From: Helicobacteraceae bacterium
Lineage (GTDB): Bacteria > Campylobacterota > Campylobacteria > Campylobacterales > SZUA-545
Direction: 5' to 3'
Length of the DNA: 64,000 nucleotides
Assembly (NCBI GenBank): GCA_031286325.1
Contig: JAITUT010000044.1
Location: 27-64,026, forward strand
Part shown: positions 4,905-64,000 of the stretch, in pieces
Layout: every line of letters begins with the position of its first letter
How positions within the stretch are numbered: the stretch's first letter is position 1
The notes under the pieces: model-generated
Told to the model about the DNA's origin: nothing
Databases searched by the model: none
What the model saw: only the letters and a program-made list of their open reading frames with translations
Made by a program: the position numbers and the translations under genes

Positions 4905-4984
4905 AAATCAACTGCTAAACTTGCCTAGTTTCATCAACTTCGCGTAGCGATTCGCGAGGCGTTCGGCGTTGGATTGGGCTGAAA
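4905..4984. repeat. about 80-bp duplicate of the accA 3' end (second copy at 5043..5122)
   Basis: aaatcaactgctaaacttgcctagtttcatcaacttcgcgtagcgattcgcgaggcgttcgg... occurs twice with 2 mismatches. Weaker similarity (gcaRagatcggct) extends about 28 bp further left of both copies. Confidence 0.85.
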
Positions 4985-5013: not shown

Positions 5014-5045
5014 GCAGAGATCGGCTGGCAGTCTGTAAAATCAAA

Positions 5046-5981
5046 TCAACTGCTAAACTTGCCTAGTTTCATCAACTTCGCGTAGCGATTCGCGAGGCGT
5101 TCGGCATTGGATTGCGCTGAAAGATCGCTGACGGCTTGCAAAAAGTACTCTTTGATCGCCTCCGCCGCGCCTTTTTTGTCGCGGTGCGCGCCCATAACGG
5201 GTTCGGCGATAATGTCGTCTATCAAGCCGTAACTTTTCAGAATTTCAGGGGTGATTTTTAGGGCTTTCGTGGCGGTTTCTACTTTGCTCGGATCATTCCA
5301 CAAGATCGCGGCGCAACCCTCCGGTGAAATCACGCTGAAAACCGAGTTGCTGAGCATCGCGAGCCTATCCGCAACCGCGATCGCGAGCGCGCCGCCGCTA
5401 CCGCCTTCGCCTATCACGACGCTGATCGTAATCGCCTCAATGCCGCTAAATTCGTAGAGGTTTTTCGCGATCGCCTCGCTCTGCCCGCGCTCTTCAGCTC
5501 CCACGCCCGGATATGCCCCAGGGGTATCGACGAGCATCAAAACGGGCAAGTTGAACTTTTCGGCGAAACGCGCCGCGCGGAGCGCTTTGCGGTAGCCTTC
5601 GGGGTGCGGCATACCAAAGTTGCGCGCGATTTTGGTCTTTGTACCCCTGCCCTTCTCCTCGCCGATTACCACGCACGCCACGCCGTCAATTTCGCCCACG
5701 AAACAGACGATCGCCGAATCGTCTTTGTAATGGCGATCACCGTGCAATTCGTAGGCGTTTTGCATAATGAGTTTGATGTAATCTAGCGAGTATGGGCGAT
5801 CTTGGTGGCGGGCGAGTTGGAGACGTTGATAGTCGCTGAGGTTGCCATAGACTTTGTTGATCGCGCGCTCCATTTCGGCGGAACGCGCTTCCAAAGCTTT
5901 CTCGTCCTTGCGGATTTTGGCGAGCTCTAGCTCTTCTTCAATGCCTTTAAGAGGTTGCTCAAAATCCAGATAAAACGCCAT
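5046..5981 (-). CDS. accA: acetyl-CoA carboxylase carboxyltransferase subunit alpha
   Basis: 311 aa with typical AccA sequence (RPYSLDYI..., [10 protein letters not shown]). Confidence 0.95.
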
Positions 5982-14039: not shown

Positions 14040-14260
14040 CGGTAGTGAAACGCTTGTAATGACAAGAAAAGGCGCGATCGCAATGATAAAGTCGGGCGCG
14101 TTAAGACGCGCGAAATTCACATAAAACCTATTATTCCAGCCGCGATCGCCGCAAGCGTATATGTAGGGGCGAACTGCGTTCGCCCGATTCCGCAACGGGC
14201 TAAAATCGCGGCTTTTGATCGCGGAGTGAAAAGGTAATTACGATTTTCGTGAGTTTCTAA
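14040..14260. repeat. mosaic intergenic repeat block A (contains a GTAG-headed palindrome at 14163..14185)
   Basis: GTAG GGGCGAAC tgc GTTCGCCC is present. Flanking modules (ggaatcgggcgaac, atatacgc, acgaaaatcg.aattac, tcattRcaagcg) recur at 15480-15800, 35961-36490 and 40380-40764. Confidence 0.7.
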
Positions 14261-14439
14261 AGAGCAAAGAAGCGTCAATGCTAAAAGCTGGTTAAAGTAT
14301 TGGCGGCGGTAACAATTGCGGCAAAACAGGATTCAAATTCACATTTACATAACGCCGCGCCGATTTTTTTGTAAATCTAATAGTGCGCGTTTGTTTTTCT
14401 AATAAGCGCGAAGATCGGCAGTTAATTTAATGGAAATTT

Positions 14440-14485: not shown

Positions 14486-14520
14486 AGCACAGCACAGCAC
14501 AGCACAGCACAGCACAGCAC
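14486..14520. repeat. pentanucleotide microsatellite (AGCAC)x7
   Basis: Seven perfect tandem AGCAC units, counted directly. Confidence 0.95.
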
Positions 14521-14692: not shown

Positions 14693-15455
14693 ATGAAAAA
14701 GTTGTTGGCAGTAGTTTTTAGCGATGTTTTTCGCTAGCGGGGCTTTATTGGCTGATGATTGGCAAGCTGATAATTTTCGTAAATGGCTTGATGGGTGGCA
14801 AGTAAGCGTGGGGGTACATATGAGTAAATTCAAAGGTAGCGCCCCGGGTCTTAGCGAATCGCGTTTTAGCGAATCCTCTAACTTTTCGAAAAATAATACG
14901 CTCTTCTCGCTAGCGATTAGCAAAGAGATTATGAAAAGCGACAGCGGCGACTTGCTTTTGGAGCTTTCGTTGATAAACTCAGAACAGTATAAGGAGAGCG
15001 GGGATGGATATGACAATACCGTGTGCTATGGATATAGCATCTGCTACACAGAGACATACGAGGAAAAACTTGAATTTACGAGGAAACCAGCGTTTTTCGC
15101 CAGTTTGTATTATCAATTTAATACACCGGTTGTGGGACTCAAGCCATACGTAGGCGCAGGGCTGGGAACGGCGTCCCTTGAACGCAAATATACCGAAACT
15201 TACACTTTTTGCGTAGACTACAACGTCTTTGATTCGAATTACTGCGACGAAGAGAGCGAAAGTAATAGCGATATTGCTTCCAAAACCGTGATCGCCTATC
15301 AGTTGGCGCTCGGCGCGAACTATTTTTTTAACAAAAATATCGCCGCCGGATTAGGTTACGCCTATCGCAACTACGGCTCGCTTAAAGACAAAGACCTTGG
15401 CTCAATCAAAATGGATTCGAGCGGGCTTTTTGCTTCGGCGACATATAAGTTTTGA
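14693..15455 (+). pseudogene. outer-membrane beta-barrel protein gene with its signal peptide out of frame (frameshift between 14693 and 14724)
   Basis: An AAGGA RBS precedes ATG 14693, which encodes MKKLLAVVF and stops at 14735. The main ORF 14724..15455 is in the +1 frame and ends ...SATYKF, a C-terminal Phe typical of OMPs. Removing one T from the T5 run at 14715-14719 gives MKKLLAVVLAMFFASGALLA/DDW. Confidence 0.7.
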
Positions 15456-15479: not shown

Positions 15480-15800
15480 TATCAAAAGCAAAGCATTTAA
15501 GAGTTGCGAAGCCCAAACGAAACCTATTGTTCCCGTTGCGTTAAGCGCAACGGGCGCAAATTACCCATCAATGCCGAACCGCGATTTTCGTAGGTTTCCA
15601 AATAAATAACTAGCTGACGTTATATTGCGATCAGGCGAACACAGTTCGCCCCTACGGTTCGCCCAATTCCGCGAGGGGCGAAGTCCATTGTCGCAAGCGG
15701 GAGCTTTGCTCCCGTGAGGAGTAAAACGAGCAGGACTAAGCTTTGCTTGTCCGCGAAGTTAAACAAGCAAGCCGCGAGAAGTTAAACACGACTAAAGTTA
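15480..15800. repeat. mosaic intergenic repeat block B (palindrome at 15634..15655, opposite orientation)
   Basis: GGCGAAC aca GTTCGCC CCTAC is present. It also has the hairpin CCCGTTGCG ttaag CGCAACGGG and modules shared with blocks A, C and D. Confidence 0.75.
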
Positions 15801-21165: not shown

Positions 21166-24100
21166 ATGACGGCAGAGCAATATGTTTATAAACTTAATGA
21201 AATTTTGTCTAGCGAAAAGGCGAGGGAACATTCTTATCGCGGAGTTTTTGAGGCTTTTTTAAACGAATTTGATACTTCCATAACAGCAATCAATGAACCA
21301 AAACATATCAGAGACGTTGGCGCGCCAGATTTCGCGATAATGAAAAATTCCGCGCCGATTGGCTATATAGAGACAAAAGATGTGGACAAAAACTTAAAAG
21401 ACCCGTCATATAAAGAGCAGTTTAACCGCTATAAAAACGCATTTGCGAATCTAATTATCACAAATTATATATCCTTTGAGTTTTGGCGCGATCAAGAGTT
21501 GATCGACGAAGTTGATATTGGCGAATACGAACCGCGCGGGCTTTTCAATTCAGGCAAAGATAAAATAAAATCTCGCGAAGATAATTCGGATAAACTTAAA
21601 TTGCTCCTTAAAAACTTTATATCTTTTGGAGGAATTAGCGTAAAAACCGCGAGCGATTTGGCGCGTTATATGGCAAACAAAACTAAACTGCTCGCCGCTA
21701 TCATTCGAAACGCAATTGACGCCGATGAAACAAGCGAAAATCAAAAGGGCGATCTAGCATATTATAAAGCGGTTTTCCAAAAAATGCTGATTCCTGATAT
21801 TGACTCCGCGAAATTCGCCGATCTTTTAGCTCAAACTATCGCTTATGGAATGTTCACCGCGAGAATTTCCGATCTTGGCAAAAGCGATTTTTCGCGTTAT
21901 ACGGCGTTTGAGAAAATACCGCGATCAAACCCGTTTTTGAAGAAACTTTTTCATTATATAGGCGGTAATATAGACGATCGTATTGTTCGTATTATAGATG
22001 ATTTTGTAGAGTTGTTTAAAGTAGCGGATTTTGAATCTATTATGCGCGAAATTCACGAGGATAAAACTCAAAATAGCCCCATTATTCATTTCTACGAAAC
22101 ATTTTTATCGCATTATAATCCCGCCGTTAGAAAAACTCGCGGCGTTTATTACACCCCTAAGCCCGCGATCGATTTTATAGTTCGCGCGGTAAATGATATT
22201 TTACGACAAGATTTTAATATGCGAAACGGGCTTGCCGATAGTTCAAAAATTAAATTTGGCGATCGCGAAATACATAAACTTCAAATTCTCGATCCCGCGA
22301 CCGGCACGGGCGCGTTTTTGACGCAAATTATTAACAAAATTTATGAAAGTATACGAACGCAGGGGCAAAGCGGATTATGGGACAGCTATGTTTCAAGCGA
22401 TCTTTTGCCTCGTTTGCACGGATTTGAGGTTTTAATGTCTAGCTACGCTATGGCGCATTTGAATATAAGTCTTATTTTAGAAGATTTGGGCTATAAATTC
22501 AAACAGAAAGAGAGATTAGGCGTTTATCTCACAAACTCGCTTGATAAAATTGGAGATATTGACCCTGTTTCGCAATTAGCGGTATGGCTTACTGAAGAAG
22601 CTAAAACGGCAAAAAATATCAAAGAAAATACTCCCGTAATGGTTTTGCTAGGCAATCCGCCTTACAGCGGCGAATCTATAAATAAAAGCGAGTTTATAAC
22701 AAATTTAATGAGAGAGTATAAACTAGAACCGAACGGCGACTCGTTACAAGAGAAAAGTTTGAAATGGATAAACGACGATTATGTTAAATTTATTCGTATG
22801 GCTGAGAGCCTGATAGAAAGAACCGGTTATGGGATAATCGCTTTTATAAACAATCACGGCTTTTTAGATAATCCGACATTTCGAGGAATGCGCTACCATT
22901 TGGCGAAAACATTTGACAAAATATACATATTAAATCTTCACGGCAACTCTTTAAGAAAAGAGCAAACACCCAGCGGATATAGAGATGAAAATATATTTGA
23001 TATTATGGTTGGCGTCTCTATAAATATATTTGTTAAAACTTCCACCCATTCAGACAACTTAGCGGAGGTTTTATACTCCGATCTTTATGGAACAAGAAAT
23101 TATAAATATGATTGGTTGTTTCGAAATAATATAAATAATCAAAACTTTATTAAATTAAAACTAGAAAGCCCCTATTACTTTTTTGTTAAAAAAGACGCGG
23201 GTTCGCAAAAAGAATATAAAAAAGGGTTTGCTATTTCAGACCTTTTCAAGGAAAAGAACATTGGAATAATGACAAAGAGGGATTCTCTGACTGTACATTT
23301 TACAGAAGAAGAAATAAAACGAGTTTATGAGGATATGAAAAATCTTACGGAGAAAGATATTAAAAGAAAATACAACATTCCAGACGACACGCGAGATTGG
23401 ATTCTGAAAAAAGCGCAAAGCGATATTAGAAAAAATGATCCTAAACTTAAGATTAATAAAATTCACTATCGCCCATTTGATTTTAGATTTACTTTATATA
23501 CTGGTAGAGTAAAAGGGTTTATGGCGTATCCGTGTTATGGGATAATGAAATATATGTTTCGCCCAAACATTGCTTTGGTTTCGGCTAGACAATTGGCGGG
23601 GAAGCAACATTTTATACTCTTCGCGACAGATACTATAATAGACAAAGGTGCTGTGGCAAATAGTGCTTATGTGATTTTTCCTCTCTATACTTACACTTTC
23701 AAAGATAAAGATTTCAAAGATAAAAAGCCTAACTATGATGAAAACGGGATCATAATAGATCATATTCAAAGAAATATAAGGCGCGATCCAGAGCCCGAAG
23801 AGGTTTTTGATTATATTTATGGCGTTTTACATTCGCCTAAATATCGCGAGAAATACGAAGAGTGTCTGAAAGTAGATTTTCCACGCGTACCTTACCCGCA
23901 AGACGCCGCATATTTTGATTATTTTAAGAATTTTGGCGAGAAATTACGCAAACTGCATTTATTAGAATCCGAACCTAAAATTGGCACGACTTTTTCAATA
24001 AAAGGCGACAATAAAATAGAGGTTGTTAAACGAGAAAAAGATCGCGTTTATATAAACAAAGAACAATTTTTCGGCAATATCCCAAATACCGCTTGGGAGT

Positions 24101-32174: not shown

Positions 32175-32250
32175 GTGTCCATAGCTCAATGGATAGAGCA
32201 TCGGTTTGCGGTGCCGAAGGTTGCAGGTTCGAGTCCTGCTGGGCACGCCA
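32175..32250 (+). tRNA. tRNA, anticodon GCG by manual folding (Arg)
   Basis: It folds as a 76-nt cloverleaf: acceptor GTGTCCA/TGGGCAC, D arm GCTC-AATGGATA-GAGC, anticodon arm TCGGT-TTGCGGT-GCCGA, T arm GCAGG-TTCGAGT-CCTGC, and an encoded CCA. Confidence 0.85.
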
Positions 32251-35609: not shown

Positions 35610-35735
35610 TTTCAACTTCGGCAATGCTTCTTTTTATAGGTAAATTTCTCAAAAACGCGGCTCAGTCTTATTTTATTTTAAGAATTTTTTCGCTACGCTT
35701 TCTGATTTGAATTTCATTATCAAATAGGAGCGAAA

Positions 35736-35960
35736 ATGAGCAAGCTTTCAACGCTTAAAGTAGGCGACAAGGCGCGAATCAGCACAGTCGATTGCGAGGG
35801 GGCGTTGCGCGATCGCTTAATTTCGCTCGGCGTCGCGCGCGGCGAAGCTTTTGAGGTGATCGGCAAGAGCGCGATGGGCGTTACCTTTGAAATTATGGTC
35901 GGCGGCAACCGCGTGGCGTTGCGCCGAAACGAAGCGGAATTAATAGGGATAGAGTTATAG
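35736..35960 (+). CDS. feoA: FeoA-family protein
   Basis: 74 aa with LKVGDKARI...LGVARGEAFEV. No feoB is adjacent. Confidence 0.8.
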   Translation: MSKLSTLKVGDKARISTVDCEGALRDRLISLGVARGEAFEVIGKSAMGVTFEIMVGGNRVALRRNEAELIGIEL

Positions 35961-36490
35961 TTTTTGCGGCTACTTGTTTAACTTCTCGCGGGAGCAAAGT
36001 TCCCGCCTACGACCAAAGGGTGATCGCCCTTTGGAAACCCACGAAAATCGCAATTACTTTTTTCGCTCGCGCTTAAAAAGTTGTGATTTTCGCCCGCTCT
36101 GCTACTCGCTACCGCGAGCAGAGCGGGATTTATAGGTTTCATTTGGATTTCGTAGCTCTTAAATGCTGCCCCTCGCAGAATTGAGCGAACCGTAGGGGCG
36201 AACTGCGTTCGCCCGATCGCAACACAACGTCAGCCAGTTATCTATTGTTCTCCCGTTATCTATTTGGAAACCTCGCAAATTGCCGTTCAGCATTGCTGGG
36301 CAATTTTCGCCCGCTACGGAATCGGGCGAACACAGTTCGCCCCTACATATACGCGATCACAACGGGAACATAAGGCTTTAGCTTAAGCTTCGTAGTTCTT
36401 AAATGCCCCCTGTATTTGTCATTGCAAGCGTAAGGATTGTGATTTTTGCGTATCGCCCTCTAAAACGCGAAGCGTAGCAAAAACGCTTTA
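35961..36490. repeat. mosaic intergenic repeat block C (inverted pair of GTAG-headed palindromes at 36192..36214 and 36324..36346)
   Basis: GTAG GGGCGAAC tgc GTTCGCCC is paired with the inverted copy GGGCGAAC aca GTTCGCCC CTAC, about 110 bp apart. There is also an 11-bp perfect hairpin CCCGCTCTGCT/AGCAGAGCGGG (36093-36127). Modules are shared with blocks A, B and D. Confidence 0.8.
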
Positions 36491-36545
36491 AGCAAATTTC
36501 GCTAAACTTCACGCAATTTTTTACCAACGCAAAAAAGGAGACAAG

Positions 36546-37148
36546 ATGAAAAGGGTTTTGATTGCGATTTTGCTGACGGCTGTGTGCCAAAGCGCGGAAA
36601 CTGATTACAAAGTTTATGAGTTGGGCAAAACGGCGCGTGTTGACGACAAGGGCAAGTGCTTGGATATGAAAGGCAATTTGCTTCCCGGTAAAGCGGAGTT
36701 GCAAAAACCTGACGAATTTGAGGACTACGCTACGATCGGAACGCGCTGTATTAACGGCGAGGCGATAGAGGAGCGCGGTTATTATGAGAGCGGCGAACTA
36801 GGATACATCGGGCCGTTAAAAAATAGTAAATACGAAGGGGTCGGTAAGTCTTTTTACGTAAGCGGCAAACTTAAATCAGAATCTTCATTCAAAAACGGTA
36901 CATTCGAGGGGCTCGCAAAATTTTTCTACGAGAGCGGCAAACTTAAAAGTGAAATACCATTCAAAAACGGCGAGAGAGAGGGCGAAATAAAACTTTTCAG
37001 GGAAAACGGCAAAATTCTCGGCGTATTTACATACAAAAATAATAAGGTAATAAGAGGCGTTTGCTATGAAACAAATGGCGAAAAAAGACCTTTCACCAAA
37101 GCCGAGCAAGAACATTGGGATCTAAACGAAGAGGTAACTTGCGATTAA
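36546..37148 (+). CDS. secreted MORN-repeat (YwqK-like) protein
   Basis: 200 aa with a signal peptide and repeated units of the form G..FYESGKLKSE..FKNG..EG. Confidence 0.7.
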   Translation: MKRVLIAILLTAVCQSAETDYKVYELGKTARVDDKGKCLDMKGNLLPGKAELQKPDEFEDYATIGTRCINGEAIEERGYYESGELGYIGPLKNSKYEGVGKSFYVSGKLKSESSFKNGTFEGLAKFFYESGKLKSEIPFKNGEREGEIKLFRENGKILGVFTYKNNKVIRGVCYETNGEKRPFTKAEQEHWDLNEEVTCD

Positions 37149-40379: not shown

Positions 40380-40764
40380 CGCCGTTGCTATTTTGGGCTT
40401 GCGATCTTACTGACGATCAAAAGGGTCTCTTTTGGACTTGTAATTCATTGACGATCAAAAGCGATCTGAGTTACGGACGTTCGCCGCAATAACGACCCTG
40501 CAACTCAAGCGGGGATTGCGACTTTGTAATTCTCTGATCGTTCCGCGCCAAAATGAGGAAATTGTGAGCGTAAGCCGCGATATTGTAGGGTCGAACTGCG
40601 TTCGACCGTCGTTTATTGTTCCCCCGTTATCTATTTGGAAACCCACGAAAATTGCAGTTACTTTTTTCGCTCGCGTTCAAAAAGTTGCGATTTTCGGCTG
40701 TTGCGGAATCGGGCGAACCGTAGTGGCGAACTGTGTTCGCCCGTTATCACTACACAGTTTGCCC
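40380..40764. repeat. mosaic intergenic repeat block D (palindromes at 40585..40607 and 40720..40742)
   Basis: It contains GTAG GGTCGAAC tgc GTTCGACC (both arms changed) and GTAG TGGCGAAC tgt GTTCGCCC. The module ttatctatttggaaacccacgaaaatYgcaRttacttttttcgctcgcg is nearly identical to block C. Confidence 0.8.
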
Positions 40765-45923: not shown

Positions 45924-46382
45924 CTATTTTTTCTCTTTTTTGGCAGATCTAAAAAAGCCGCTTTTGTGTTTTTGAAATTCCTTATCATTAGCGGTAACAT
46001 AATCAAACAATTCAGGAGTTAAGTCCTCAGACTTAACAAGTTCACTGATTGTTTTAATGTTTTCTAATTTATTTCTTGTTTCTTCTGTTGGTGATAATGG
46101 TTTGGGAAGTGTCGCATCGAAAAAACGAGCAACTGCGGCACCCAAAAGTAATAGAAATACAGGATTTTTTACAATCTTAACCATGTATCTGCCAATTACA
46201 CCTCCCTCATTACGAGAAAAAACTTCTATTTCTAATGGAGTATCAAAGTATTTGTTCAAACTCAAAATCATTTGAACAAATTGTTTTTCACACTCATTAT
46301 AGACTTTTGCATCCATAGAATGCCAATTATCATCACTCAAAAAGTAATATAACTTTAATTGTATGACTTCTTGATTTTTCAT
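45924..46382 (-). CDS. hypothetical protein with one central hydrophobic segment, co-oriented with the R-M genes
   Basis: 152-aa ORF lying 6 nt downstream of the methyltransferase gene. It has the hydrophobic segment VFLLLLGAAVARFF. I recognise no motif. Confidence 0.5.
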   Translation of the reverse strand: MKNQEVIQLKLYYFLSDDNWHSMDAKVYNECEKQFVQMILSLNKYFDTPLEIEVFSRNEGGVIGRYMVKIVKNPVFLLLLGAAVARFFDATLPKPLSPTEETRNKLENIKTISELVKSEDLTPELFDYVTANDKEFQKHKSGFFRSAKKEKK

Positions 46383-46388
46383 TTATTA

Positions 46389-47621
46389 TTATCTTTTTTT
46401 CTCACAAATCACAACATATTCCCACAGCATTGTATTTACGGTTTTTCCTGCTTTATTAGTTGGCGAATTTTTACTCGGCATTGATTTGTTGCTTAATGCT
46501 CGCTTATAGGTAATTAAATGCTTAAATTCATTCCGCTCAAATTTTTCAGCAATAAATTGGTCAGTTGGCAACTGAACATTTTTTACGTTGCGATTCCCCA
46601 CTACATAAATTGATTTTCCGCCTTTGCAAACGCTTTTTGCTACTTGGTTGATCGAAAAACTCAAATCGTTGTAAAACGCCGAAACATCTAAGGCTCTTTT
46701 GCTATCCACTTTATTGATCTCAGAAATATAATCGGCAATAATTCCGGATTTAATATTTTGTTTCGGTTTTACGCCCCCCATCAACATTCCGTCAATTTTT
46801 CGGGCGTAATCAACCCCGAGCCATTCGTTAGAAAGCGTAGAAAATTGTCCGTAAGCAACGGTTGTGCGGCTATCGCCATAGGGCGGGCTTGTCAGCACCA
46901 CATCAAAATATTCATCTTTCGGCTGAAATGTAGAATATTGCACATTTACAGTTACATTTTTATCTAATTTTGGATAATAATAATTTGAATATAAGGAAAT
47001 TGTATCTTCCAATTTTTTGAGATAAATGCCGATAACGTCGGGATTAAAACGCAATAAGTCTTCTGTCTTCATACGGAATAATTTAAATTCATTGTTGCGT
47101 GTGTAGGAACATTCACGCACGGTTTCTGAAAACGGAATCAAAAAGAAGCGGCGAATATTTTCGTCTTGTATCTGCTCTATGAAATTCTTGATAATAGCCA
47201 AATTGGCGATCACTTGTGTTGAAAACCAATAGTCAATATTGGTAATTTTCGGAGGTTTCAGCGTTTCAATGTTTTTTTCGTTTTTTAAAAATTCATAAAC
47301 ATTGTTTCGTAATTCTTTTTTTGTTGCAACTATTTCATTTACAGAAACCTTTGTAAATCGCGCTTTTGAAATTAAAATCGCCAAAGGATTAATATCAAAG
47401 CCGTGCATTTCAGTTAAACCGCACTCCAAACCGCTGGCAAATGAAGAACCTGAACCGCAATAGGGGTCAAGCAATTTTCCGCTTTTTATATCCAATTCAT
47501 TGAAAATTTCAATACCAATTTGCGGCAACATCGTTGCGGGATATTTGTGCAAATTCGGATAAACTGTCGCATATGATTGTCCGATAAAATCATATTTTTC
47601 ATTTCTAACAACTTGATACAT
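46389..47621 (-). CDS. DNA amino-methyltransferase (N4-cytosine or N6-adenine), Type II
   Basis: 410 aa with motif I LLDPYCGSGSSF and motif IV VVLTSPPYGD about 190 aa downstream. Confidence 0.85.
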   Translation of the reverse strand: MYQVVRNEKYDFIGQSYATVYPNLHKYPATMLPQIGIEIFNELDIKSGKLLDPYCGSGSSFASGLECGLTEMHGFDINPLAILISKARFTKVSVNEIVATKKELRNNVYEFLKNEKNIETLKPPKITNIDYWFSTQVIANLAIIKNFIEQIQDENIRRFFLIPFSETVRECSYTRNNEFKLFRMKTEDLLRFNPDVIGIYLKKLEDTISLYSNYYYPKLDKNVTVNVQYSTFQPKDEYFDVVLTSPPYGDSRTTVAYGQFSTLSNEWLGVDYARKIDGMLMGGVKPKQNIKSGIIADYISEINKVDSKRALDVSAFYNDLSFSINQVAKSVCKGGKSIYVVGNRNVKNVQLPTDQFIAEKFERNEFKHLITYKRALSNKSMPSKNSPTNKAGKTVNTMLWEYVVICEKKR

Positions 47622-47623
47622 AG

Positions 47624-48304
47624 TTATAAATCTTTTATATTGTTGAAAAGTAACGGTAGTTTGTCTTCGTAAGTTCGGAAACCTGTACCGTGATTTCGAG
47701 CCATTGTGCCTTTGTCGTGTAAACGTAAATCTACCAAAACATTTTCAGCACGAAATTGGTTGGCTAACAATTCCGGCGAAGTTCCTTGCATAAGTTGTGC
47801 GCGATAAAAATGAAAATGTTCTACTCCGTTGCGTTCTTCTGTGAATGTTGAAACAAAAAGTAACGCAGGTAATTTTTGCATAAAGCGGTCAGCCAAAGTT
47901 TGGAGCAGCCAAGTAGCAACAATTTCTCCCGAAATGTGACGAACGGAAATTTCAGTTTTTTGCACGTCAAGAAATAAACCGGCGCTATTTGGTTTGAGCG
48001 ACATCGTGTAATAAAGCCCCTGTCTGCCATCTTTATCCAAACTACCATATTTTTTTACGGCTTCCAATGGAGGCATTTTCCAAACTTTATTGTTGAAAGT
48101 GAAAAGCGTAATCAAGCTATTGCCTTTCGTTCTATGCGCTTTCAGTTCGGCGCCTTCAATATCGGGGCGAGCCTCATTATTTTCAGCAATTCCTAATAAA
48201 GTTTCAAGCGTATAGCCGATACCTGTTGGACCTTTTCGTTTTGTTGGGACAAAACCTAAGCCTTTGATTTGTTTAAATTTATACGTAAATTCTTCTATTT
48301 TCAT
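47624..48304 (-). CDS. Type II restriction endonuclease, MvaI/BcnI-like
   Basis: 226 aa. The blocks GPTGIGYTLETLLGI, RPDIEGAELKAHRTKGNSLITLFTF, VEHFHFYRAQLM and VLVDLRLHDKG...NHGTGFR resemble BcnI/MvaI as I remember them. It lies 2 nt upstream of the methyltransferase gene. Confidence 0.65.
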   Translation of the reverse strand: MKIEEFTYKFKQIKGLGFVPTKRKGPTGIGYTLETLLGIAENNEARPDIEGAELKAHRTKGNSLITLFTFNNKVWKMPPLEAVKKYGSLDKDGRQGLYYTMSLKPNSAGLFLDVQKTEISVRHISGEIVATWLLQTLADRFMQKLPALLFVSTFTEERNGVEHFHFYRAQLMQGTSPELLANQFRAENVLVDLRLHDKGTMARNHGTGFRTYEDKLPLLFNNIKDL

Positions 48305-57026: not shown

Positions 57027-60000
57027 TCCGCAACGGCGATATTCCAGAAGATTTAATTAAAACGTTTCCCGACGGATCAAAAACTTACGCTTATGAATTG
57101 ACGGAAAACGACATAAGATATAGGGTGGTTGTGTTTGAGTGGAGCGACGAAAAGAAAGTAATTACAATGTATTCAGATAGAAATACCGGTAAAGGAGACC
57201 CAGTTAGTCAATCCAATACCGGCGAGAAAATCATACCAGAAAATAATGGGTTGTCAAGGGCGCAAAACAAAAAGCCAAATGACGGCGGCGCGGGCGGAGA
57301 AACGGCGAGCGAGCCAGTTTTGGATAATCCGAATAAACCGAATAATCCCGATAATCCAAAGGGCGGCGCGGGAGATCAAGCGGTGGCGGCGCAAGTTGAA
57401 AAAGAGGAGTTGACGGAGAGCGCGGGAAACGCGGAGAGCGGCGCGGGCGAACACAATTCGCCCCTACGGGAGAACGCGGCGGGCGCGGTTAATTCGCCTA
57501 ACGCGCAAAGATCGCCAACGTCCGACGATTTAATAAAATTGCACAAAGACGGCGGGAAAGCGGTAATCTCTACGCTAGAGCCTGCGGAAGTAGCGGAAGT
57601 TGAGAAAATCCTGAACGATAGCGGGATTGAATTTGCCTATAAGAAAACTCCCGTCAATCGCGTGATAGATAGCGAGGGGATTACGCATATATTGCGCGAA
57701 CACGGCAACGAAGCGACCGAAGCGGCGCGGGGCAATATCGCGGTAACTTTTGAAGATATAGCGAACTACGAAAACATTATTAAAAGCGCGGATATGTCAG
57801 AAGCGACCGCTACGAAAAACGCGCCGCGAATCGCGCACGGTAAACAAGTAAACGGCTATTTTATCGTAGTAGAAGAAGCAAGAACAAAAACGGGCGAGCT
57901 AAGACTAGTTACTATGAGAAAGCAGAGAGGAAAATTAACGAGGGCTGCGTTATGGCTCGCCAAAGACAAGCCCCACCGCTCTACGTCCGAAACGACCCCT
58001 CTGGGGCAAACGCCGCGCGCAACGAATGCCTTAAATGAAAGTATACCGCAAGCGAGGGATTTGTCAAGAGAACAACTAGAACAACTTAACGCGCTGGACG
58101 AAAGCAAATTAACAGACGGACAGGCGTTAACGCGCGATATGTTTTTGGGAAAAGCGAACGAAGCGATTTTGAGAATGAAAGACGGACGCGTTTTCACGGA
58201 TTATTATAGAAATAAAGACTGGATAGTTGCTTTTAAGCGCGACGGAAAGCCAAGCGAAGTAAACAGAAACGCGTGGAGCGGAGAACTGCTAGAAATCAGC
58301 GATGTAATCCGAAACGGCGAATTAGCTTTTGACGGCGTTACGGAAAACGGCGCGATAAGATACGCATACGAGATGACGAAAAAATATGACGTTTTGCCCG
58401 ATGAAATTTTCAAGTTTAAGGTTGTAATAGAGGAGAACGCGGATCAGACTGTAACGATTGATTTTTATAAGGGAAATATAAAGACGAAAGAGCCGATCGC
58501 CCGCGAAACGCAAGCGGCAAAAGAAAGTATAAACGCGGGGAAAGCCGAAAAGGAATTGTCGGAGGGCGCGGAGTCAAGCTCTTCTAAAGTCATTCGCGGC
58601 GTTTTGGATCGCTCGCTACAAAGAGCGGAGAAAGCCAAAGAACAGATTAAAGAGCTCAACGAAAAGCTAGAAAAAAGCGTATCGTTTGAGGAAACAAAAA
58701 GCCTCTCTGCCGCGATCGAAGAACAAGAGCGGCATTTAGACGACGCTTTGCGCGGCGCAAACGAAGCAAGAAAACAGATCGCGGATGGCGCGATTGATTT
58801 ATTATTGAATGAAAAACAAGGCGAGGTAAAGGGCGCGTTGCACAATAAGCACGTGGGCGATATTGATCTGCCGTGGGGCGAGGCGGGAACGGGCAAAAGC
58901 GACGGTTGGGGGCTGGCGAAAATAGAGAAGTTTCACCCGGAAGTATTAGACAATTTGCAAGAGATTTTAAGCGATATGGAGATTAAAAGCAAAAGCGAAA
59001 ATAGAATAAGACTTGAAAGCGACCGCCATTCTGCGTCCGTGAGGCTAGATTATAACGGAGAAAAAAAGAAATGGTTACTCACGGCGTATGAAAAAGAAAC
59101 AAGCAAGAACGCCACCCCCGCAGGCACGACGAACATCTACGAGAACCCCAAAAACGGAGCAATTGAGAATGGCTACTCTCAAAGCGGCGTTAATGAAAGT
59201 ATATCGCAAACGGCGGAGTTGTCAAGATATATAGAGCTAATAAATAATGATTATAGAGAGTTTAATAAACCAATAAATTATGATTGGCTTATAAAGCTCG
59301 GAATGGGCGCGGAAGATATAGCGCAGTTGAGACTTTTCCACGAAAGGAGTCAAAAATACGGAACAACAAAGCCTCTAAACCAAGCAAGAAAGCTTTTAAC
59401 CGCGTTTAGAGATAGCTTGTTACGCGAGAAGCAAAGCGGCGGCGGATCGGGCGACGCGGGCAAAAGTATACCGCAAGCGGGGGATTTGTCAAGCGCGAGG
59501 GCAATCGCTGAAAGCGGCTCGAATGTTTCCAAAGTAGAAAGCGCGGCGGGCGCGGAAACGTCGGCGCGGTCGGCGATCGCGGGCGAACGCGGTTCGCCGC
59601 TATGGGAGAACGCGGAAAGCGCGGAAAGCGCGGCGATCGGCGCGAAAACGAAAGAAGATTTCAGCCTTGAGGATACGAATAGGATTTACGGCGGGGCAAG
59701 CAAACGCGCGGACGATAATCTGAAAGCGATTAGGTTATTAAAGCAATTAGAGAGCGAAGATAGAGCCGCGACGAAAGAGGAACAGGAGATTTTATCGCGT
59801 TATGTGGGTTGGGGCGGCGTGAAAGAGATATTCACAAATCTCAAAAAAGGTTGGGAGAATAGATTTAACGAGTTAAAGAGTTTGCTAACGGACGACGAAT
59901 ATAAAGCCGCGCGATCTTCCACGCAATACGCGCATTACACGGATTATAGAATAGTGAAAACCGTGTGGAAAGCTCTGGATAAATTAGGTTTATTGCCAGC

Positions 60001-63000
60001 TTTGCCCCAAAAATCTACGATTTTTGGGGACCCCGCCGATAAAACAATTAGAGTATTAGAGCCGAGCGCGGGGGTTGGGAATTTCTTTATGTTCGCGCCG
60101 AAAGGTTTGCGCTTTGAGAAGTTCGCGGTAGAGAAAGACGATATTTCAGCGAGGATCGCGGCGAAATTATTCCCGAATACTAGATTGGCGAAAAGAGGTT
60201 TTGAGGAGACGAATTTTGAGCGAAATTCCTTTGATTTAATTATTGGAAACCCGCCCTTTTCGGAAAATACCGCCACTTCCGCGCTGGATCAGAAGTTTGG
60301 CGAACTTGCGGGAATGTCTTTGCATAATTACTTTTTGGCGAAATCAGCCGCGTTGCTTAAAGAGGGCGGCGCGATGGGCGTAATTGTAACGCGGAATTTT
60401 ATGGACGCGGCAAACGCCGACGCGCGGGAATATCTGCAAAGGCAAGGGTTAGATTTAATGGCGGCGGTAAGATTGCCGAATAACTCTTTCAAAGAAAACG
60501 CGAATACTTCTGTAACGACCGATCTATTGATATTCCGCAAAAGGAAAGCGGGCGAAACCGCGCTTAATGATAATTGGGTAAAGACGGCGAAAGTAGAGGA
60601 TATTAACGGCGGCGAAGCGATAAAGACGAACGCCTTTTTCGCGGAAAATCCTGAAAATATGTTTGGCGTTTGGGCGCGCGCGAAACACGGGCAATACGGC
60701 GCGAACGAGGAAACTTTAATCGCGAGAGAGGGAAGCGATATATTCGCCGATCTTGATAAATGGGCGGATAATTTGAGCGGCGCGGAAACGAAAACCGATA
60801 ATTCCCGACGCGATCTAGCGGCGGGCGAAAATCGCCCTGCAGAGCAGAACGGCGATTTTCGGGAGAGTCAAGAGACGAAGTCTTTTGTCGGAGCGGAGGC
60901 TTTGCCTTCGCGAGAAATAGAAAGAAAACCCGCTTTACAGCATATTTACGAAATGGGCGCGGGCGCGGGAGATATAAGAATAACTGGGGATGGCAAATTA
61001 GCGCGGATCGTAAAAGACGAATTGGGAGACGATGTATTAGAGGAAGTTGATCCGATAGAGCTTTTAACGACGCGCGACGAGTTTAACGCGTTTGATTTAG
61101 CGAAACAAGAGAAGTTAAGAAAACAAGCCTCCGAAGCCGCCGAAAGATATAAAGCGGCTTTGGAGCTTTATTCGCTTCGCGCGAAATTATCAAAAGCGGA
61201 GTTAAATATAGGGAGCAAGAAAGAGGATATTGAGGCTTTGCGCGGCGAATTAAATAAGACGTATGACGACTATACGCGCGAATTTGGCGCGATAAACGCG
61301 CCGCAAAACTCTTCCGTATTGGGCGATACGGCTTTTTATCCGACTTTGCAAACGTTAGAAGACGTCAAGAAGATAAGCGGCAAAAGAATTTATGAGCGAG
61401 CCGGAGCGTTAAATAGACGATCGCAATTTCCATACGTAAAAGCGGAGAAAGCGGATAGCGCGGTTAACGCTTTGGCGATTTCGCTGGACGAAACGGGCGG
61501 TTTGGATTTAGCGCGGATTGCCGAGTTGCGAGGCATTGACGAAAGCGCGGCGGAGAGAGAATTATTAACGGACGGATTGGCGTTTTACGACCCGAAAAAG
61601 GCGCGTTTAGTCGCGAAAGACGAGTATTTAAGCGGAAATGTAAAGGCGAAATTGCGCGAGGCTAAGGCGGCGTATCAAGAGACGAACGATCCGCGCCTAG
61701 CGGCGAATATAGAGGAGTTGGAGAAAATCCAGCCGGCGAAAGTAAGCATAACGGAAGTTCATATACCTTTTGCTTCGGCGTGGATACCGATTGAAGTAAT
61801 GGAAGATTTCGCGCGGGAAGTCTTGAAAACTTCAATAAGCGCGAAACAAGTAATAGACGGCAAATGGAAGATAAGCGTAATGGGCAATGTTCCGTCCGAT
61901 GTTCGCGCGATTTTCGCGACGGAAAAGAAAGATTTAGAAGACGTCTTAAACGCGGCGGCGAATCAGCGCGAATTGCGCGTGAATAAGAAAGATAACTTTG
62001 GAAATCCAATAACGGATATAGGCGCGACGCAAGAGGCGAACGCGAAAGTTAAAGCTCTCAAAGAGGCGTGGAGCGAATGGCTGACTGCGGACGGCAAACG
62101 CGCTATAGAATTAGAAGATTTGTATAACGAGCGATTTAATAATCTTGCGGAGCGGAAATATGACGGCTCTAAGCTTTCGTTTATCGGCAAAGTTCACGAC
62201 GCTATTGTGAAACTTAGAACGCACCAAAAGAACGCCGCTTTCCGTATTTTGCAGGAGAAAACCGCGCTGCTTGATCACACGGTAGGAAGCGGCAAGACGT
62301 TTTCTATGATTAGCGCGATAATGGAGTTAAGGCGGCAAGGACAGGCGAAGAAGATAATAGTCGTCGTGCCGAATCATCTTGTGGAGCAATGGCGAAAAGA
62401 TTTCGCGAAACTTTATCCCGAATCTAATGTTTTAGCGATTGGGCAAGGCAAATACACATCTAAAAACCGCAATCGGCTAAATAACCGCATTATGAATCAG
62501 GACTTTGACGCGGTAATAATGCCGATTAGCTCTTTTACGCAATTGGGTGTTTCGCCGCAATTGGAGCGGCAATATCTAGAGGAAGAAATTCGCTTGGTAA
62601 TGGAAGCGGAAAAGGCGGCGAGAATAGAGAGCGGCGGCAAAAGAAGCCAATCTTTGCGCGATTTGGAGAGAAAGCGCGAAAGTTTGCAAGATAAAATTAA
62701 ATCGCGCCAGCGGAAAATAGCGAAAAGGCAGGATAAGAGCGTTTGGTTTGACGAGTTGGGAATTGACGCGCTTTTTGTCGACGAGGCGCAGGAGTTTAAG
62801 AATTTAGGTTTCGCTACGACTTTGCGAAATGTGGCGGGAATTGGAAACGCGGAAGGCTCGCAAAGGGCGCAGGATTTATTCTATAAAACGCGCTTTTTGA
62901 GCGGTCAAGATAAGCGGATTGTATTCGCTACGGGAACGCCGATAAGCAATTCGCTGACGGAGGCTTATACTTTGCAGAGATATTTGGATTATGAGACTTT

Positions 63001-64000
63001 GCGGAGAGAAAATCTCGCGGCATTTGACAATTGGGTTAAGCAATTCGGGCAAATTGAGAGCGATTTTGAGGTTACGGGCGTAAATACGATGAAAGAGCGA
63101 ACGCGGCTAAGAAGTTATGTGAATGTCGCGCAACTTAAAAAGTTGTATAAACGTTTCGCCGATTGCGTAACGACCGCCGATGTAAAACGGATCGCGGAGG
63201 AGAACGGCGAAAAGCTAATGATACCGCCAATTAACGGCGGCAAAGCGAAAACGCTAGCCGCCGAGATAAGCGATCATCAACGCGAGTATTTTAAGAAATT
63301 GCAAGAACGCGCGGATAATATAAAGCGCGGCGATAAAGACAATATGCTGAACATTTTAACCGACGGGAATAAAGCCTCGTTGGATTACAGGTTGATAGAT
63401 AAAAACGCGCCCGATTTCGCGGGAAGCAAAGTAAATCTGGCAGTTGATAATATCGTGAATGATTATAAAGCGTGGGAGAAAGACAAGGGAACGCAACTAG
63501 TATTTTGCGATTTATCCACGCCGAAGAAGATCACAAAGGGTTTGCAAACGGCGCGGAAAACGCTGGAGGAGAAATTAGCGAAAGCGAACGCGGGAGACGC
63601 GAACGCGGAAGCTTGGCTAGAAAAGAATTATTCCGCGCCCGGAGCGATCGAGGATATGCTTAATGTCGACGGGTTTAGCGTTTATGACGATGTAAAGCAA
63701 AAACTAATCGCGCGCGGAATACCAGAAAACGAAATCGCCTTTATTCACGATTTTGAGGGCAAATCGCGCAAAGAGGAGCTTTTTGACAAAGTTAATAAAG
63801 GCGAAATACGGGTTTTATTAGGCAGTTCGGGCAAAATGGGATCGGGAATGAATGTGCAGGAGCGGTTAGTCTCGTTACATCATCTTGATTGCCCTTATCG
63901 CCCCTCTGATTTGGAGCAGAGAAACGGGCGAAAGCGAGCTGAGGTAAATGCTTTAAGAACAAAATACTTCCCGCAAATCTCTTTGTATGGCAAATACGAT
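57014..64000 (+). CDS. giant polyvalent protein (3' partial): repeated nuclease-like modules + N6-adenine DNA methyltransferase + SNF2/DEAD-type helicase
   Basis: I translated by hand from ATG 57014 (frame 2) to nt 64000 without meeting a stop (2329 codons). The track does not list it because it has no stop. The motifs are given under the sub-features below. Confidence 0.85.
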   Translation, partial: MGEIIRNGDIPEDLIKTFPDGSKTYAYELTENDIRYRVVVFEWSDEKKVITMYSDRNTGKGDPVSQSNTGEKIIPENNGLSRAQNKKPNDGGAGGETASEPVLDNPNKPNNPDNPKGGAGDQAVAAQVEKEELTESAGNAESGAGEHNSPLRENAAGAVNSPNAQRSPTSDDLIKLHKDGGKAVISTLEPAEVAEVEKILNDSGIEFAYKKTPVNRVIDSEGITHILREHGNEATEAARGNIAVTFEDIANYENIIKSADMSEATATKNAPRIAHGKQVNGYFIVVEEARTKTGELRLVTMRKQRGKLTRAALWLAKDKPHRSTSETTPLGQTPRATNALNESIPQARDLSREQLEQLNALDESKLTDGQALTRDMFLGKANEAILRMKDGRVFTDYYRNKDWIVAFKRDGKPSEVNRNAWSGELLEISDVIRNGELAFDGVTENGAIRYAYEMTKKYDVLPDEIFKFKVVIEENADQTVTIDFYKGNIKTKEPIARETQAAKESINAGKAEKELSEGAESSSSKVIRGVLDRSLQRAEKAKEQIKELNEKLEKSVSFEETKSLSAAIEEQERHLDDALRGANEARKQIADGAIDLLLNEKQGEVKGALHNKHVGDIDLPWGEAGTGKSDGWGLAKIEKFHPEVLDNLQEILSDMEIKSKSENRIRLESDRHSASVRLDYNGEKKKWLLTAYEKETSKNATPAGTTNIYENPKNGAIENGYSQSGVNESISQTAELSRYIELINNDYREFNKPINYDWLIKLGMGAEDIAQLRLFHERSQKYGTTKPLNQARKLLTAFRDSLLREKQSGGGSGDAGKSIPQAGDLSSARAIAESGSNVSKVESAAGAETSARSAIAGERGSPLWENAESAESAAIGAKTKEDFSLEDTNRIYGGASKRADDNLKAIRLLKQLESEDRAATKEEQEILSRYVGWGGVKEIFTNLKKGWENRFNELKSLLTDDEYKAARSSTQYAHYTDYRIVKTVWKALDKLGLLPALPQKSTIFGDPADKTIRVLEPSAGVGNFFMFAPKGLRFEKFAVEKDDISARIAAKLFPNTRLAKRGFEETNFERNSFDLIIGNPPFSENTATSALDQKFGELAGMSLHNYFLAKSAALLKEGGAMGVIVTRNFMDAANADAREYLQRQGLDLMAAVRLPNNSFKENANTSVTTDLLIFRKRKAGETALNDNWVKTAKVEDINGGEAIKTNAFFAENPENMFGVWARAKHGQYGANEETLIAREGSDIFADLDKWADNLSGAETKTDNSRRDLAAGENRPAEQNGDFRESQETKSFVGAEALPSREIERKPALQHIYEMGAGAGDIRITGDGKLARIVKDELGDDVLEEVDPIELLTTRDEFNAFDLAKQEKLRKQASEAAERYKAALELYSLRAKLSKAELNIGSKKEDIEALRGELNKTYDDYTREFGAINAPQNSSVLGDTAFYPTLQTLEDVKKISGKRIYERAGALNRRSQFPYVKAEKADSAVNALAISLDETGGLDLARIAELRGIDESAAERELLTDGLAFYDPKKARLVAKDEYLSGNVKAKLREAKAAYQETNDPRLAANIEELEKIQPAKVSITEVHIPFASAWIPIEVMEDFAREVLKTSISAKQVIDGKWKISVMGNVPSDVRAIFATEKKDLEDVLNAAANQRELRVNKKDNFGNPITDIGATQEANAKVKALKEAWSEWLTADGKRAIELEDLYNERFNNLAERKYDGSKLSFIGKVHDAIVKLRTHQKNAAFRILQEKTALLDHTVGSGKTFSMISAIMELRRQGQAKKIIVVVPNHLVEQWRKDFAKLYPESNVLAIGQGKYTSKNRNRLNNRIMNQDFDAVIMPISSFTQLGVSPQLERQYLEEEIRLVMEAEKAARIESGGKRSQSLRDLERKRESLQDKIKSRQRKIAKRQDKSVWFDELGIDALFVDEAQEFKNLGFATTLRNVAGIGNAEGSQRAQDLFYKTRFLSGQDKRIVFATGTPISNSLTEAYTLQRYLDYETLRRENLAAFDNWVKQFGQIESDFEVTGVNTMKERTRLRSYVNVAQLKKLYKRFADCVTTADVKRIAEENGEKLMIPPINGGKAKTLAAEISDHQREYFKKLQERADNIKRGDKDNMLNILTDGNKASLDYRLIDKNAPDFAGSKVNLAVDNIVNDYKAWEKDKGTQLVFCDLSTPKKITKGLQTARKTLEEKLAKANAGDANAEAWLEKNYSAPGAIEDMLNVDGFSVYDDVKQKLIARGIPENEIAFIHDFEGKSRKEELFDKVNKGEIRVLLGSSGKMGSGMNVQERLVSLHHLDCPYRPSDLEQRNGRKRAEVNALRTKYFPQISLYGKYD
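57680..57706 (+). other. His-x4-His signature of nuclease-like module 2 (ITHILREHG)
   Basis: The same pattern recurs at 56946-56966 (IHIAQKH) and 58910-58942 (GLAKIEKFHPE). Each is followed by a beta-rich segment ending in ..TMY/..TAY/..DFY. Confidence 0.45.
59801..60545 (+). other. N6-adenine DNA methyltransferase domain of the giant ORF
   Basis: YVGWGG at 59801-59818, motif I VLEPSAGVGNF at 60053-60085 and motif IV GNPPF at 60245-60259. Confidence 0.8.
62210..63931 (+). other. SNF2/DEAD-like helicase domain of the giant ORF
   Basis: Walker A VGSGKT at 62282-62299, DEAQ box VDEAQE at 62777-62794, motif III-like ATGTPISNS, and motif VI start QRNGR at 63917-63931. Confidence 0.8.

Follow-up and report, generated by a model that had tools for sequence, protein, structure and literature searches.

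GTAG-tagged repetitive extragenic palindromes packed into mosaic blocks 3′ of genes in an uncultured termite-gut Campylobacterales lineage

Repeat units and mosaic blocks in the window

The DNA analysed here is a 64,000-nt stretch assigned to a Helicobacteraceae bacterium (GenBank assembly GCA_031286325.1, contig JAITUT010000044.1, positions 27 to 64,026; referred to below as the window), and our subject is a 23-nt palindromic unit, GTAG-GGGCGAAC-NNN-GTTCGCCC, that recurs within it. Eight copies are present, six in four intergenic regions and two in frame within a giant open reading frame (ORF). The unit belongs to the GTAG-tagged superfamily of repetitive extragenic palindromes (REPs), and in the intergenic regions it is packed together with at least five lineage-specific repeated hairpin modules into blocks that lie just 3′ of genes and resemble bacterial interspersed mosaic elements (BIMEs).

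RpsA of the window is 64–66% identical to proteins from metagenome-assembled genomes (MAGs) labelled Helicobacteraceae or Campylobacterales and 52–54% identical to those of Hydrogenimonas and Sulfurospirillum. Together with the origin of the source sequencing run in a termite gut, these identities indicate that the host is an uncultured termite-gut lineage of the Campylobacterales. Exact-match look-ups with the proteins of two ORFs in the window gave no match. Self-BLAST of the window delimits four blocks, all of which begin directly past a stop codon. Two of the four lie between convergent genes, and all four have the placement that characterises REPs, downstream of ORFs or between convergent genes:

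Block A, 14051–14262: repeated part of the intergenic region between ybgC and an outer-membrane protein (OMP) gene, 3′ of the ybgC-like thioesterase gene; summed depth about 58 times that of the unique flanks
Block B, 15492–15788: between the β-barrel OMP gene and the convergent slyD; a composite reversed relative to block C, with one REP and an intact CCCGTTGCG/CGCAACGGG hairpin (the 'empty' state)
Block C, 35975–36430: 3′ of feoA; at least six hairpin modules, including an inverted REP pair; modules at 9–66 times flank depth
Block D, 40584–40745: in the gap between rpsA and the convergent hisA; two tandem REPs with a TTATCTATTTGGAAACC... module between them

The pattern GTAGGGGCGAACNNNGTTCGCCC, allowing up to two mismatches, matches the window eight times against an expectation of 0.01, and none of 100 shuffled sequences reaches eight. 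Each unit is a short stem-loop palindrome consisting of GTAG, a perfect 8-bp stem with a GGG/CCC foot (three G-C pairs) and a 3-nt loop, TGC or TGT, with the GTAG standing as the unpaired GT[AG]G tag at the end of the stem. As single-stranded DNA (ssDNA) the unit folds with −9.2 kcal/mol (z down to −5.3). The GTAG head is kept in seven of the eight copies, the degenerate copy in the ORF having ATAG, and three of the six intergenic copies match the cross-phylum consensus described below at every base. The intergenic copies comprise two singles, one inverted pair and one tandem pair; the copies lie on both strands with irregular spacing, and so do not form a CRISPR array. The eight copies are as follows:

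14163–14185, plus strand: perfect, loop TGC; type II flanks (cgtatat left, gattccgcaacgggc right); 173 nt past the ybgC-like stop codon
15633–15655, minus strand: one mismatch, the last base being T, which gives G·T at the stem foot; type I flanks; between the convergent OMP gene and slyD
36192–36214, plus strand: perfect, loop TGC; type I flanks; left arm of the inverted pair
36324–36346, minus strand: perfect, loop TGT; type II flanks; right arm of the inverted pair, GTAG heads outward
40585–40607, plus strand: variant with the compensatory double change GGGTCGAAC / GTTCGACC, which preserves the 8-bp stem
40720–40742, plus strand: variant GTAGTGGCGAAC..., in tandem, 135 nt past the 40585 copy, with a spare GGGCGAAC arm before it
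57445–57467, minus strand: one mismatch; in frame in the polyvalent-protein ORF; encodes AGEHNSPL in the linker before PBECR3
59581–59603, minus strand: degenerate, ATAG head, two mismatches; in frame in the same ORF; encodes AGERGSPL in the PBECR1–methylase linker

Two kinds of flank surround the intergenic units. Type I flanks (left ...cccctcgcRgaattgRgcgaacc, right gatcgcaaYaYaacgtcagc) are found at 15655 (minus) and 36192 (plus), and partly at 40720 (plus); type II flanks (left cgtatat, right gattccgYaRcgggc) are found at 14163 (plus) and 36346 (minus). Ahead of GTAG, the type I motif supplies the GGGCGAAC arm a second time, which allows an alternative, longer hairpin. Outside the REP itself, the blocks contain the following repeated parts:

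15584 (minus) and 40627 (plus): module TTATCTATTTGGAAACC.ACGAAAAT, with weaker copies at 36030 and 36255
36132–36166 (plus) and 15493–15527 (minus): module ATAGGTTTC.TTTGG..TTCG.A.CTCTTAAATGC, by pattern match, with a diverged copy at about 36370–36405
14051 (minus) and 36417 (plus): module TGTCATTRCAAGCG, by pattern match
15652 (minus), 36178 (plus) and 40706 (plus): motif GAAT.G.GCGAACC directly ahead of GTAG, by pattern match
36178–36191 (plus), 15656–15669 (minus) and 40706–40719 (plus): half-REP GAATTGAGCGAACC, a spare 5′ arm abutting GTAG
15533–15555 (plus): hairpin CCCGTTGCG-ttaag-CGCAACGGG, −13.3 kcal/mol as ssDNA over the 38 nt at 15525–15562
36093–36127 (plus): separate perfect 11-bp hairpin CCCGCTCTGCT...AGCAGAGCGGG inside block C

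Every accessory module tested is expected 0.00 times by chance. A composite of about 190 nt is common to block B (reversed) and block C, with 85–90% identity between the two, and blocks A and D hold subsets of it in other orders. Within block C the units at 36192–36217 and 36321–36346 form an inverted pair with 26-nt arms that are 96% complementary and have 103 nt between them. An earlier note on this DNA, made from the sequence alone, had described the filling of four intergenic regions, six units, the accessory modules, the inverted pair and the GTAG-tagged REP architecture; all of these are recovered here (units at 14163+, 15633−, 36192+, 36324−, 40585+ and 40720+), and the copies at 57445− and 59581− are additional to its list.

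Alignment of the paralogous copies shows that the block B hairpin CCCGTTGCG-cttaa-CGCAACGGG is intact, and that the same loop in blocks C and A (reversed) is filled with GAATC-GGGCGAAC.CAGTTCGCCCCTAC-ATATAC..., a REP unit of about 41 nt. The filled and empty loops show that this unit behaves as a separate insertion/deletion module. With at least five accessory modules in differing orders around the REPs, the larger blocks fit the description of BIME-like mosaics more closely than that of REPINs (inverted REP doublets with a short spacer), where we use BIME for the architecture only. The earlier note had also offered the REPIN label, and one inverted pair does have that form. The window nevertheless holds one doublet versus two singlets and one tandem pair, and block B, a paralogous composite with the same flanks, carries a single REP, so that the doublet is at most a candidate replicating unit.

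Folded as RNA, block C reaches −202.6 kcal/mol, compared with −150.6 ± 5.8 kcal/mol for shuffled sequences (z = −9). No sigma-70-like promoter is predicted in block C, and prediction of T-run terminators over 35700–36700 gives zero terminator-like sites, so that block C does not qualify as an intrinsic terminator. Searching the window with Rfam 15 at the gathering score yields no match to the repeats, and only a tRNA-Arg at 32175. In the source metagenome a T for C at the last stem base (GTTCGCCT, window position 36214; also present in the 15633 copy) accounts for about 46% of the copy depth. This variant retains a G·U pair in RNA and is a mismatch in DNA, which hints that some copies are selected as RNA.

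The two remaining units lie in an ORF of more than 2,300 codons (57029–64000, plus strand) that runs past the end of the window and encodes a polyvalent protein with PBECR3 and PBECR1 nuclease, Eco57I/N6 methylase and SNF2/ResIII helicase domains, a kind of protein borne by conjugative elements and phages. The copies at 57445 and 59581 are 83% identical to each other over 47 nt, and both fall in inter-domain linkers. REPs in coding regions are known (Di Nocera 2013; Quentin 2018), and the copies here resemble them in keeping the reading frame and occupying linkers; they differ in that the host gene encodes a mobile-element polyvalent protein, and is neither a replication or repair gene nor a gene for a REP-associated tyrosine transposase (RAYT). 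The same ORF contains a 36-nt repeat three times at 83–86% identity (58034–58069, 59192–59227 and 59459–59494), which encodes the repeated linker peptide (N/K)ESI(P/S)QA..(D/E)LS.

Copy number and rearrangement in the source metagenome

Depth was taken from the source termite-gut metagenome run, which covers the window almost fully, with its contigs matched to block C at ≥80% identity. The unique flanks of block C have a depth of 10.4, compared with 459–689 for the REP bins, 92–456 for the lineage-specific modules and 52–60 for the remainder of the block. Blocks A and B have depths of 591 and 403, respectively, against 10.1 for their flanks. Expressed as ratios to the flanks, the modules reach 9–44-fold and the REP bins 40–66-fold, the latter including signal from other organisms. 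The metagenome contigs contain many alternative joins between modules, and those that carry them have a depth of 9–15, which is that of the host genome. The elevated module depth, together with these rearranged contigs at host depth, establishes that the family is spread genome-wide in the host in tens of copies. The units are thus in high copy and, at six of the eight in the window, extragenic. Confinement to the few loci of the window, which the earlier note had named as grounds for abandoning its proposal, does not hold, even with the REP figure taken as an upper estimate.

In two further runs of the same study (X2 and X3) the organism is missing, flank depth being about zero except for one 212-nt contig in X2. 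In these runs the REP core is present, but no accessory module is.

When the source sample is assembled independently from k-mers, the contigs break within the blocks, so the exact order of modules in each block depends on the assembler behind the contig analysed here.

Two genes beside the blocks are themselves multi-copy. The MORN-repeat lipoprotein gene after block C (36546–37148) has 8–20 times flank depth over its 5′ part, and the OMP gene that separates blocks A and B (14724–15455) has up to 8 times flank depth; the two are members of paralogous families of surface proteins. A (CACAG)n pentanucleotide tract of about six units at 14488–14516, upstream of the β-barrel OMP gene by about 180 nt, could be a phase-variation tract. 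The simple repeat is very common in the sample, with a summed metagenome depth of about 29,000, and may occur there in host or other DNA.

Elsewhere in the window, two stretches of about 35% G+C (22001–24000 and 46001–48000) stand out from the 46–56% G+C of the rest, and are possible islands of foreign DNA. An 80-nt direct repeat (4905–4984 and 5043–5122; 98% identity, 138 nt apart) is a duplicated gene end, because the minus-strand ORF 5046–5981 reaches with its 3′ end into one of the copies.

The unit in other genomes, viral contigs and RAYT genes

The 20 fixed bases of the unit are found exactly in at least 118 stretches of species-representative genomes from about ten phyla, where about one chance match is expected in 596 Gb. 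Among the matches listed, most come from gut Clostridia (Oscillospiraceae, Acutalibacteraceae and Ruminococcus), and others from Zoogloeaceae, Coriobacteriales, Desulfovibrionaceae, Bacteroidetes, cyanobacteria, Omnitrophota, Gemmatimonadales and Nitrospinota; a dozen termite-gut MAGs are among the listed carriers. Many of these genomes hold inverted pairs 45–75 nt apart, and some hold 'double-foot' palindromes (loci L014, L040 and L085). In the partner units the GTAGGGG head is constant and the stem differs (GGGCGACC, GGGCGTTC and GGGAGACC).

The 23-mer is also present in 48 stretches of viral contigs (IMG/VR; loci L128–L175), one 20-kb contig (L130 and L173) having eight copies, all on one strand. 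None of the 48 viral stretches encodes a RAYT. Phages may offer the REP one way of passing from host to host. By contrast, the 76 kb available from the five nearest Helicobacteraceae/Campylobacterales contigs (RpsA 66% identical) contain no copy, and scanning the metagenome contigs with the lineage-specific flank (REP + GATYSC) returns four loci that have the REP core only and none of which is of the host lineage. Because the nearest relatives sampled lack the unit while unrelated bacteria of termite and other guts, and phage contigs, carry an identical 23-mer, the element was probably acquired horizontally within the gut community.

Two of the bacterial loci contain tandem arrays. In an Oscillospiraceae locus (L116, 2800–3145) the REP recurs every 63–65 nt, and in a Coriobacteriales locus (L042, 1966–2981) every 120 nt, paired with the GGGCGACC partner. 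Their conserved spacers identify them as tandem duplications and not CRISPR arrays, although repeat finders could miscall them as such.

A motif scan of the fetched loci revealed three RAYT-like genes with an internal 23-mer (L008, L110 and L112). In each, the 23-mer lies upstream of the HUH motif and is translated as VGANCVRP, and just past that motif a second, inverted REP is translated as GRxxxAPT. The three proteins match NF047646 REP_Tyr_transpos (E = 4e-19, under the equivalog cut-off) and Pfam Y1_Tnp, and belong to a family of at least 2,958 members, some of them named RayT by JGI; VGANCVRP is retained in 103 of the 120 best matches. Six such genes from gut Clostridia, each with an in-frame inverted REP pair around the HUH motif, were aligned by codon:

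L110, 5636–6172: RAYT-like gene
L008, 353–898: RAYT-like gene
L176, 10001–10522: RAYT-like gene
L177, 5364–5897: RAYT-like gene
L178, 969–1502: RAYT-like gene, with a REP cluster directly 3′ of it
L179, 10001–10546: RAYT-like gene

The encoded proteins are about 42–75% identical, and third codon positions vary throughout the genes except inside the two REPs, where all three codon positions are fixed. The stem of the second REP covaries (GAAC/GTTC, GACC/GGTC and GCAC/GTGC), and in four of the six genes (L110, L176, L177 and L179) the GTAG heads are exactly 193 nt apart.

These features match a known class. TnpA_REP subclass 2.4, as set out by Quentin et al. 2018 (PMC6006769), is marked by the motifs NH[IFV]H, WQ and YIxNNP, by REPs with three G-C pairs at the stem foot and by double-foot REPs; it corresponds to RAYT group 4 (Bertels et al. 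2017, PMC5581495). The unit of the window has the three consecutive G-C foot pairs beside GT[AG]G (GTAG-GGGCGAAC...GTTCGCCC), double-foot versions occur in L014, L040 and L085, and the RAYT genes with the identical in-frame 23-mer have NH[ILV]H, WQ and YIxNP motifs, their family being scattered over phyla. As an identical 23-mer stands in or beside RAYT genes with the published subclass features, all of them in other genomes (L008, L110, L112 and L176–L179), sequence comparison identifies the window unit as the cognate REP type of subclass 2.4. The REP of the window differs from these in being embedded in lineage-specific mosaics, none of which is seen with the copies in Clostridia, Zoogloeaceae or Coriobacteriales. 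In-frame REPs inside tnpA_REP genes have already been described for subclass 2.4 (PMC6006769), and we therefore do not regard their presence in these RAYT genes as a new observation.

Other searches for the enzyme returned little. Clustering of ORFs over the 118 listed loci shows no recurrent transposase, the RAYTs having surfaced by the motif scan only, and tblastn of RAYT against plasmids gives four distant matches, none in Campylobacterota. A word-indexed search with the translated inverted pair returned no candidate sharing three 5-residue words, even though known RAYTs contain VGANCVRP and GRTQFAPT; this empty result looks like a limitation of the tool for that query and not a true absence. 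We also considered whether the inverted pair of block C is a decayed RAYT fragment, and rejected this because nothing but the two octapeptides encoded by the REPs anchors the BLASTP alignment, the spacer is unrelated and there is no HUH motif.

Spread of the elements and their place among known repeats

We consider it likely that the REPs were spread by a subclass 2.4 RAYT acting on ssDNA hairpins, with recombination shuffling the modules and the transcribed blocks serving as stable 3′ structures; we infer both the action of the enzyme in this host and the role as RNA. In ssDNA at the replication fork the unit would fold as a hairpin, and the RAYT (TnpA_REP, a Y1 HUH nuclease) would bind the stem and the GTAG guide, cut beside it and rejoin the DNA, such that units are copied or moved. 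Recombination between copies would shuffle neighbouring modules as mosaics. The blocks, transcribed as 3′ untranslated regions, would form very stable hairpins that may protect the upstream mRNA or attenuate read-through.

Several observations weigh against this reading. As the earlier note had stated, there is no RAYT or Y1 gene in the 64-kb window, where the only tblastn matches are REP-encoded octapeptides, and no source-run contig matches the Clostridial RAYT gene of L110 at ≥80% identity, this being the one gene tried. For the sequence class, the RAYT association proposed in that note is borne out by the in-frame 23-mer with frozen synonymous positions in Clostridial RAYT-like genes, and mobilisation in this host would follow by analogy. 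Among the source-run contigs on blocks A–C, no empty allele of any block is seen in the population. The scan of metagenome contigs shows no counterparts of the accessory modules elsewhere, and only one inverted pair is seen in the window. The REP depth is an upper estimate of the number of copies because other organisms add REP-core signal, as in runs X2 and X3.

The lack of a RAYT in the window would also fit fossil or domesticated hairpins without a resident enzyme, which the host would keep as attenuators, as sites for protein binding or to stabilise mRNA 3′ ends, and which recombination would duplicate from time to time. This view gains from the position of all blocks 3′ of genes, from the strong RNA fold of block C (z = −9) and from the GTTCGCCT variant (36214 C>T, about 46% of depth), which keeps its pairing as G·U in RNA and not in DNA. 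However, the exact agreement of three of the six intergenic copies with the cross-phylum consensus argues for recent spread or conversion and not for old relics, and the 35700–36700 region has no T-run terminators; we judge this explanation rather improbable. It is also unlikely that the mobile unit is a larger lineage-specific, non-autonomous composite of about 190–270 nt, similar to a MITE (a miniature transposable element with inverted repeats) and moved by another transposase, with the REP as a passenger or later insertion. Such a composite would account for the approximately 190 nt that blocks B and C share at 85–90% identity, for its existence with and without the second REP, and for non-REP modules that stand at 9–44 times flank depth and are missing from the runs without the organism. 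Yet neither the blocks nor the shared composite are bordered by terminal inverted repeats, the filled site shows no target-site duplication and no transposase lies nearby, and the variation of module order from copy to copy, with its many alternative joins, is better explained by recombinational mosaics.

We give very little credence to the idea that the unit is a DNA uptake signal or another protein-recognition site, or that the blocks are an assembly chimera. In Neisseria, inverted pairs of uptake sequences do lie downstream of genes, and the breaking of the short-k-mer assembly inside the blocks could be taken as a sign of chimerism. An uptake signal would be lineage-specific, however, whereas the 23-mer is found in about ten phyla, in phage contigs and inside RAYT genes; and the genes flanking every block are Campylobacterales on both sides, at the same depth of about 10.

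We tentatively raise one further possibility, which we hold to be less probable than not. A single REP lineage, identical at the 20 fixed bases, may circulate across gut phyla and phages (Clostridia, Coriobacteriales, Zoogloeaceae, Desulfovibrionaceae, Bacteroidetes, Campylobacterales and phage contigs); it would have been acquired recently here and then expanded to tens of copies within the host's own hairpin modules, possibly without a resident RAYT, by trans-mobilisation or recombination.

Mosaic architecture and position after genes are shared with the REP/BIME elements of E. coli, in which GTAG hairpins and other short motifs form mosaics after genes, inverted and in tandem, and the mechanism is presumably the same. 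The elements described here appear to differ from them in stem sequence, in having a shorter perfect stem and in their linker modules; the E. coli TnpA_REP (PDB 4ER8) is a subclass 2.2 RAYT. Pseudomonas REPINs, which Bertels and Rainey reportedly described with their RAYT in 2011, are likewise inverted doublets with GTAG heads outward, as at 36192/36346, that can fold as one long hairpin. There is one such doublet here, its spacer is 103–109 nt, and the same composite has a single REP in block B.

GTAG repeats have been reported from all divisions of the proteobacteria, alpha to epsilon, including Sulfurovum sp. NBC37-1, and that study also describes them as dimers and clusters, and in positions downstream of genes or within them (Di Nocera et al. 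2013, PMC3733652). The earlier note knew of no such system in Campylobacterota-like genomes; the idea that it is new there is accordingly wrong. By description, the Sulfurovum repeats are likewise GTAG-tagged REPs of the Epsilonproteobacteria/Campylobacterota; the difference is that the host here is a termite-gut Campylobacterales lineage with RpsA 52–66% identical to that of named relatives. The exact sequence GTAGGGGCGAAC was not found in the searchable literature. The family adds a new example to a kind of bacterial repeat that is well known, and reveals no new mechanism; only its lineage-specific mosaic modules and the identity of the unit across phyla go beyond textbook REPs.

Blocks of this kind fragment short-read assemblies and give rise to spurious ORFs (with peptides such as GRTQFAPT and VGANCVRP), and recognising them would improve the binning and annotation of such MAGs. 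The finding adds an uncultured termite-gut lineage of Campylobacterales to the hosts of GTAG-tagged REPs, and the exact REP that it shares with other phyla and with phage contigs is a useful natural marker for tracing the horizontal spread of RAYT/REP systems in gut communities.

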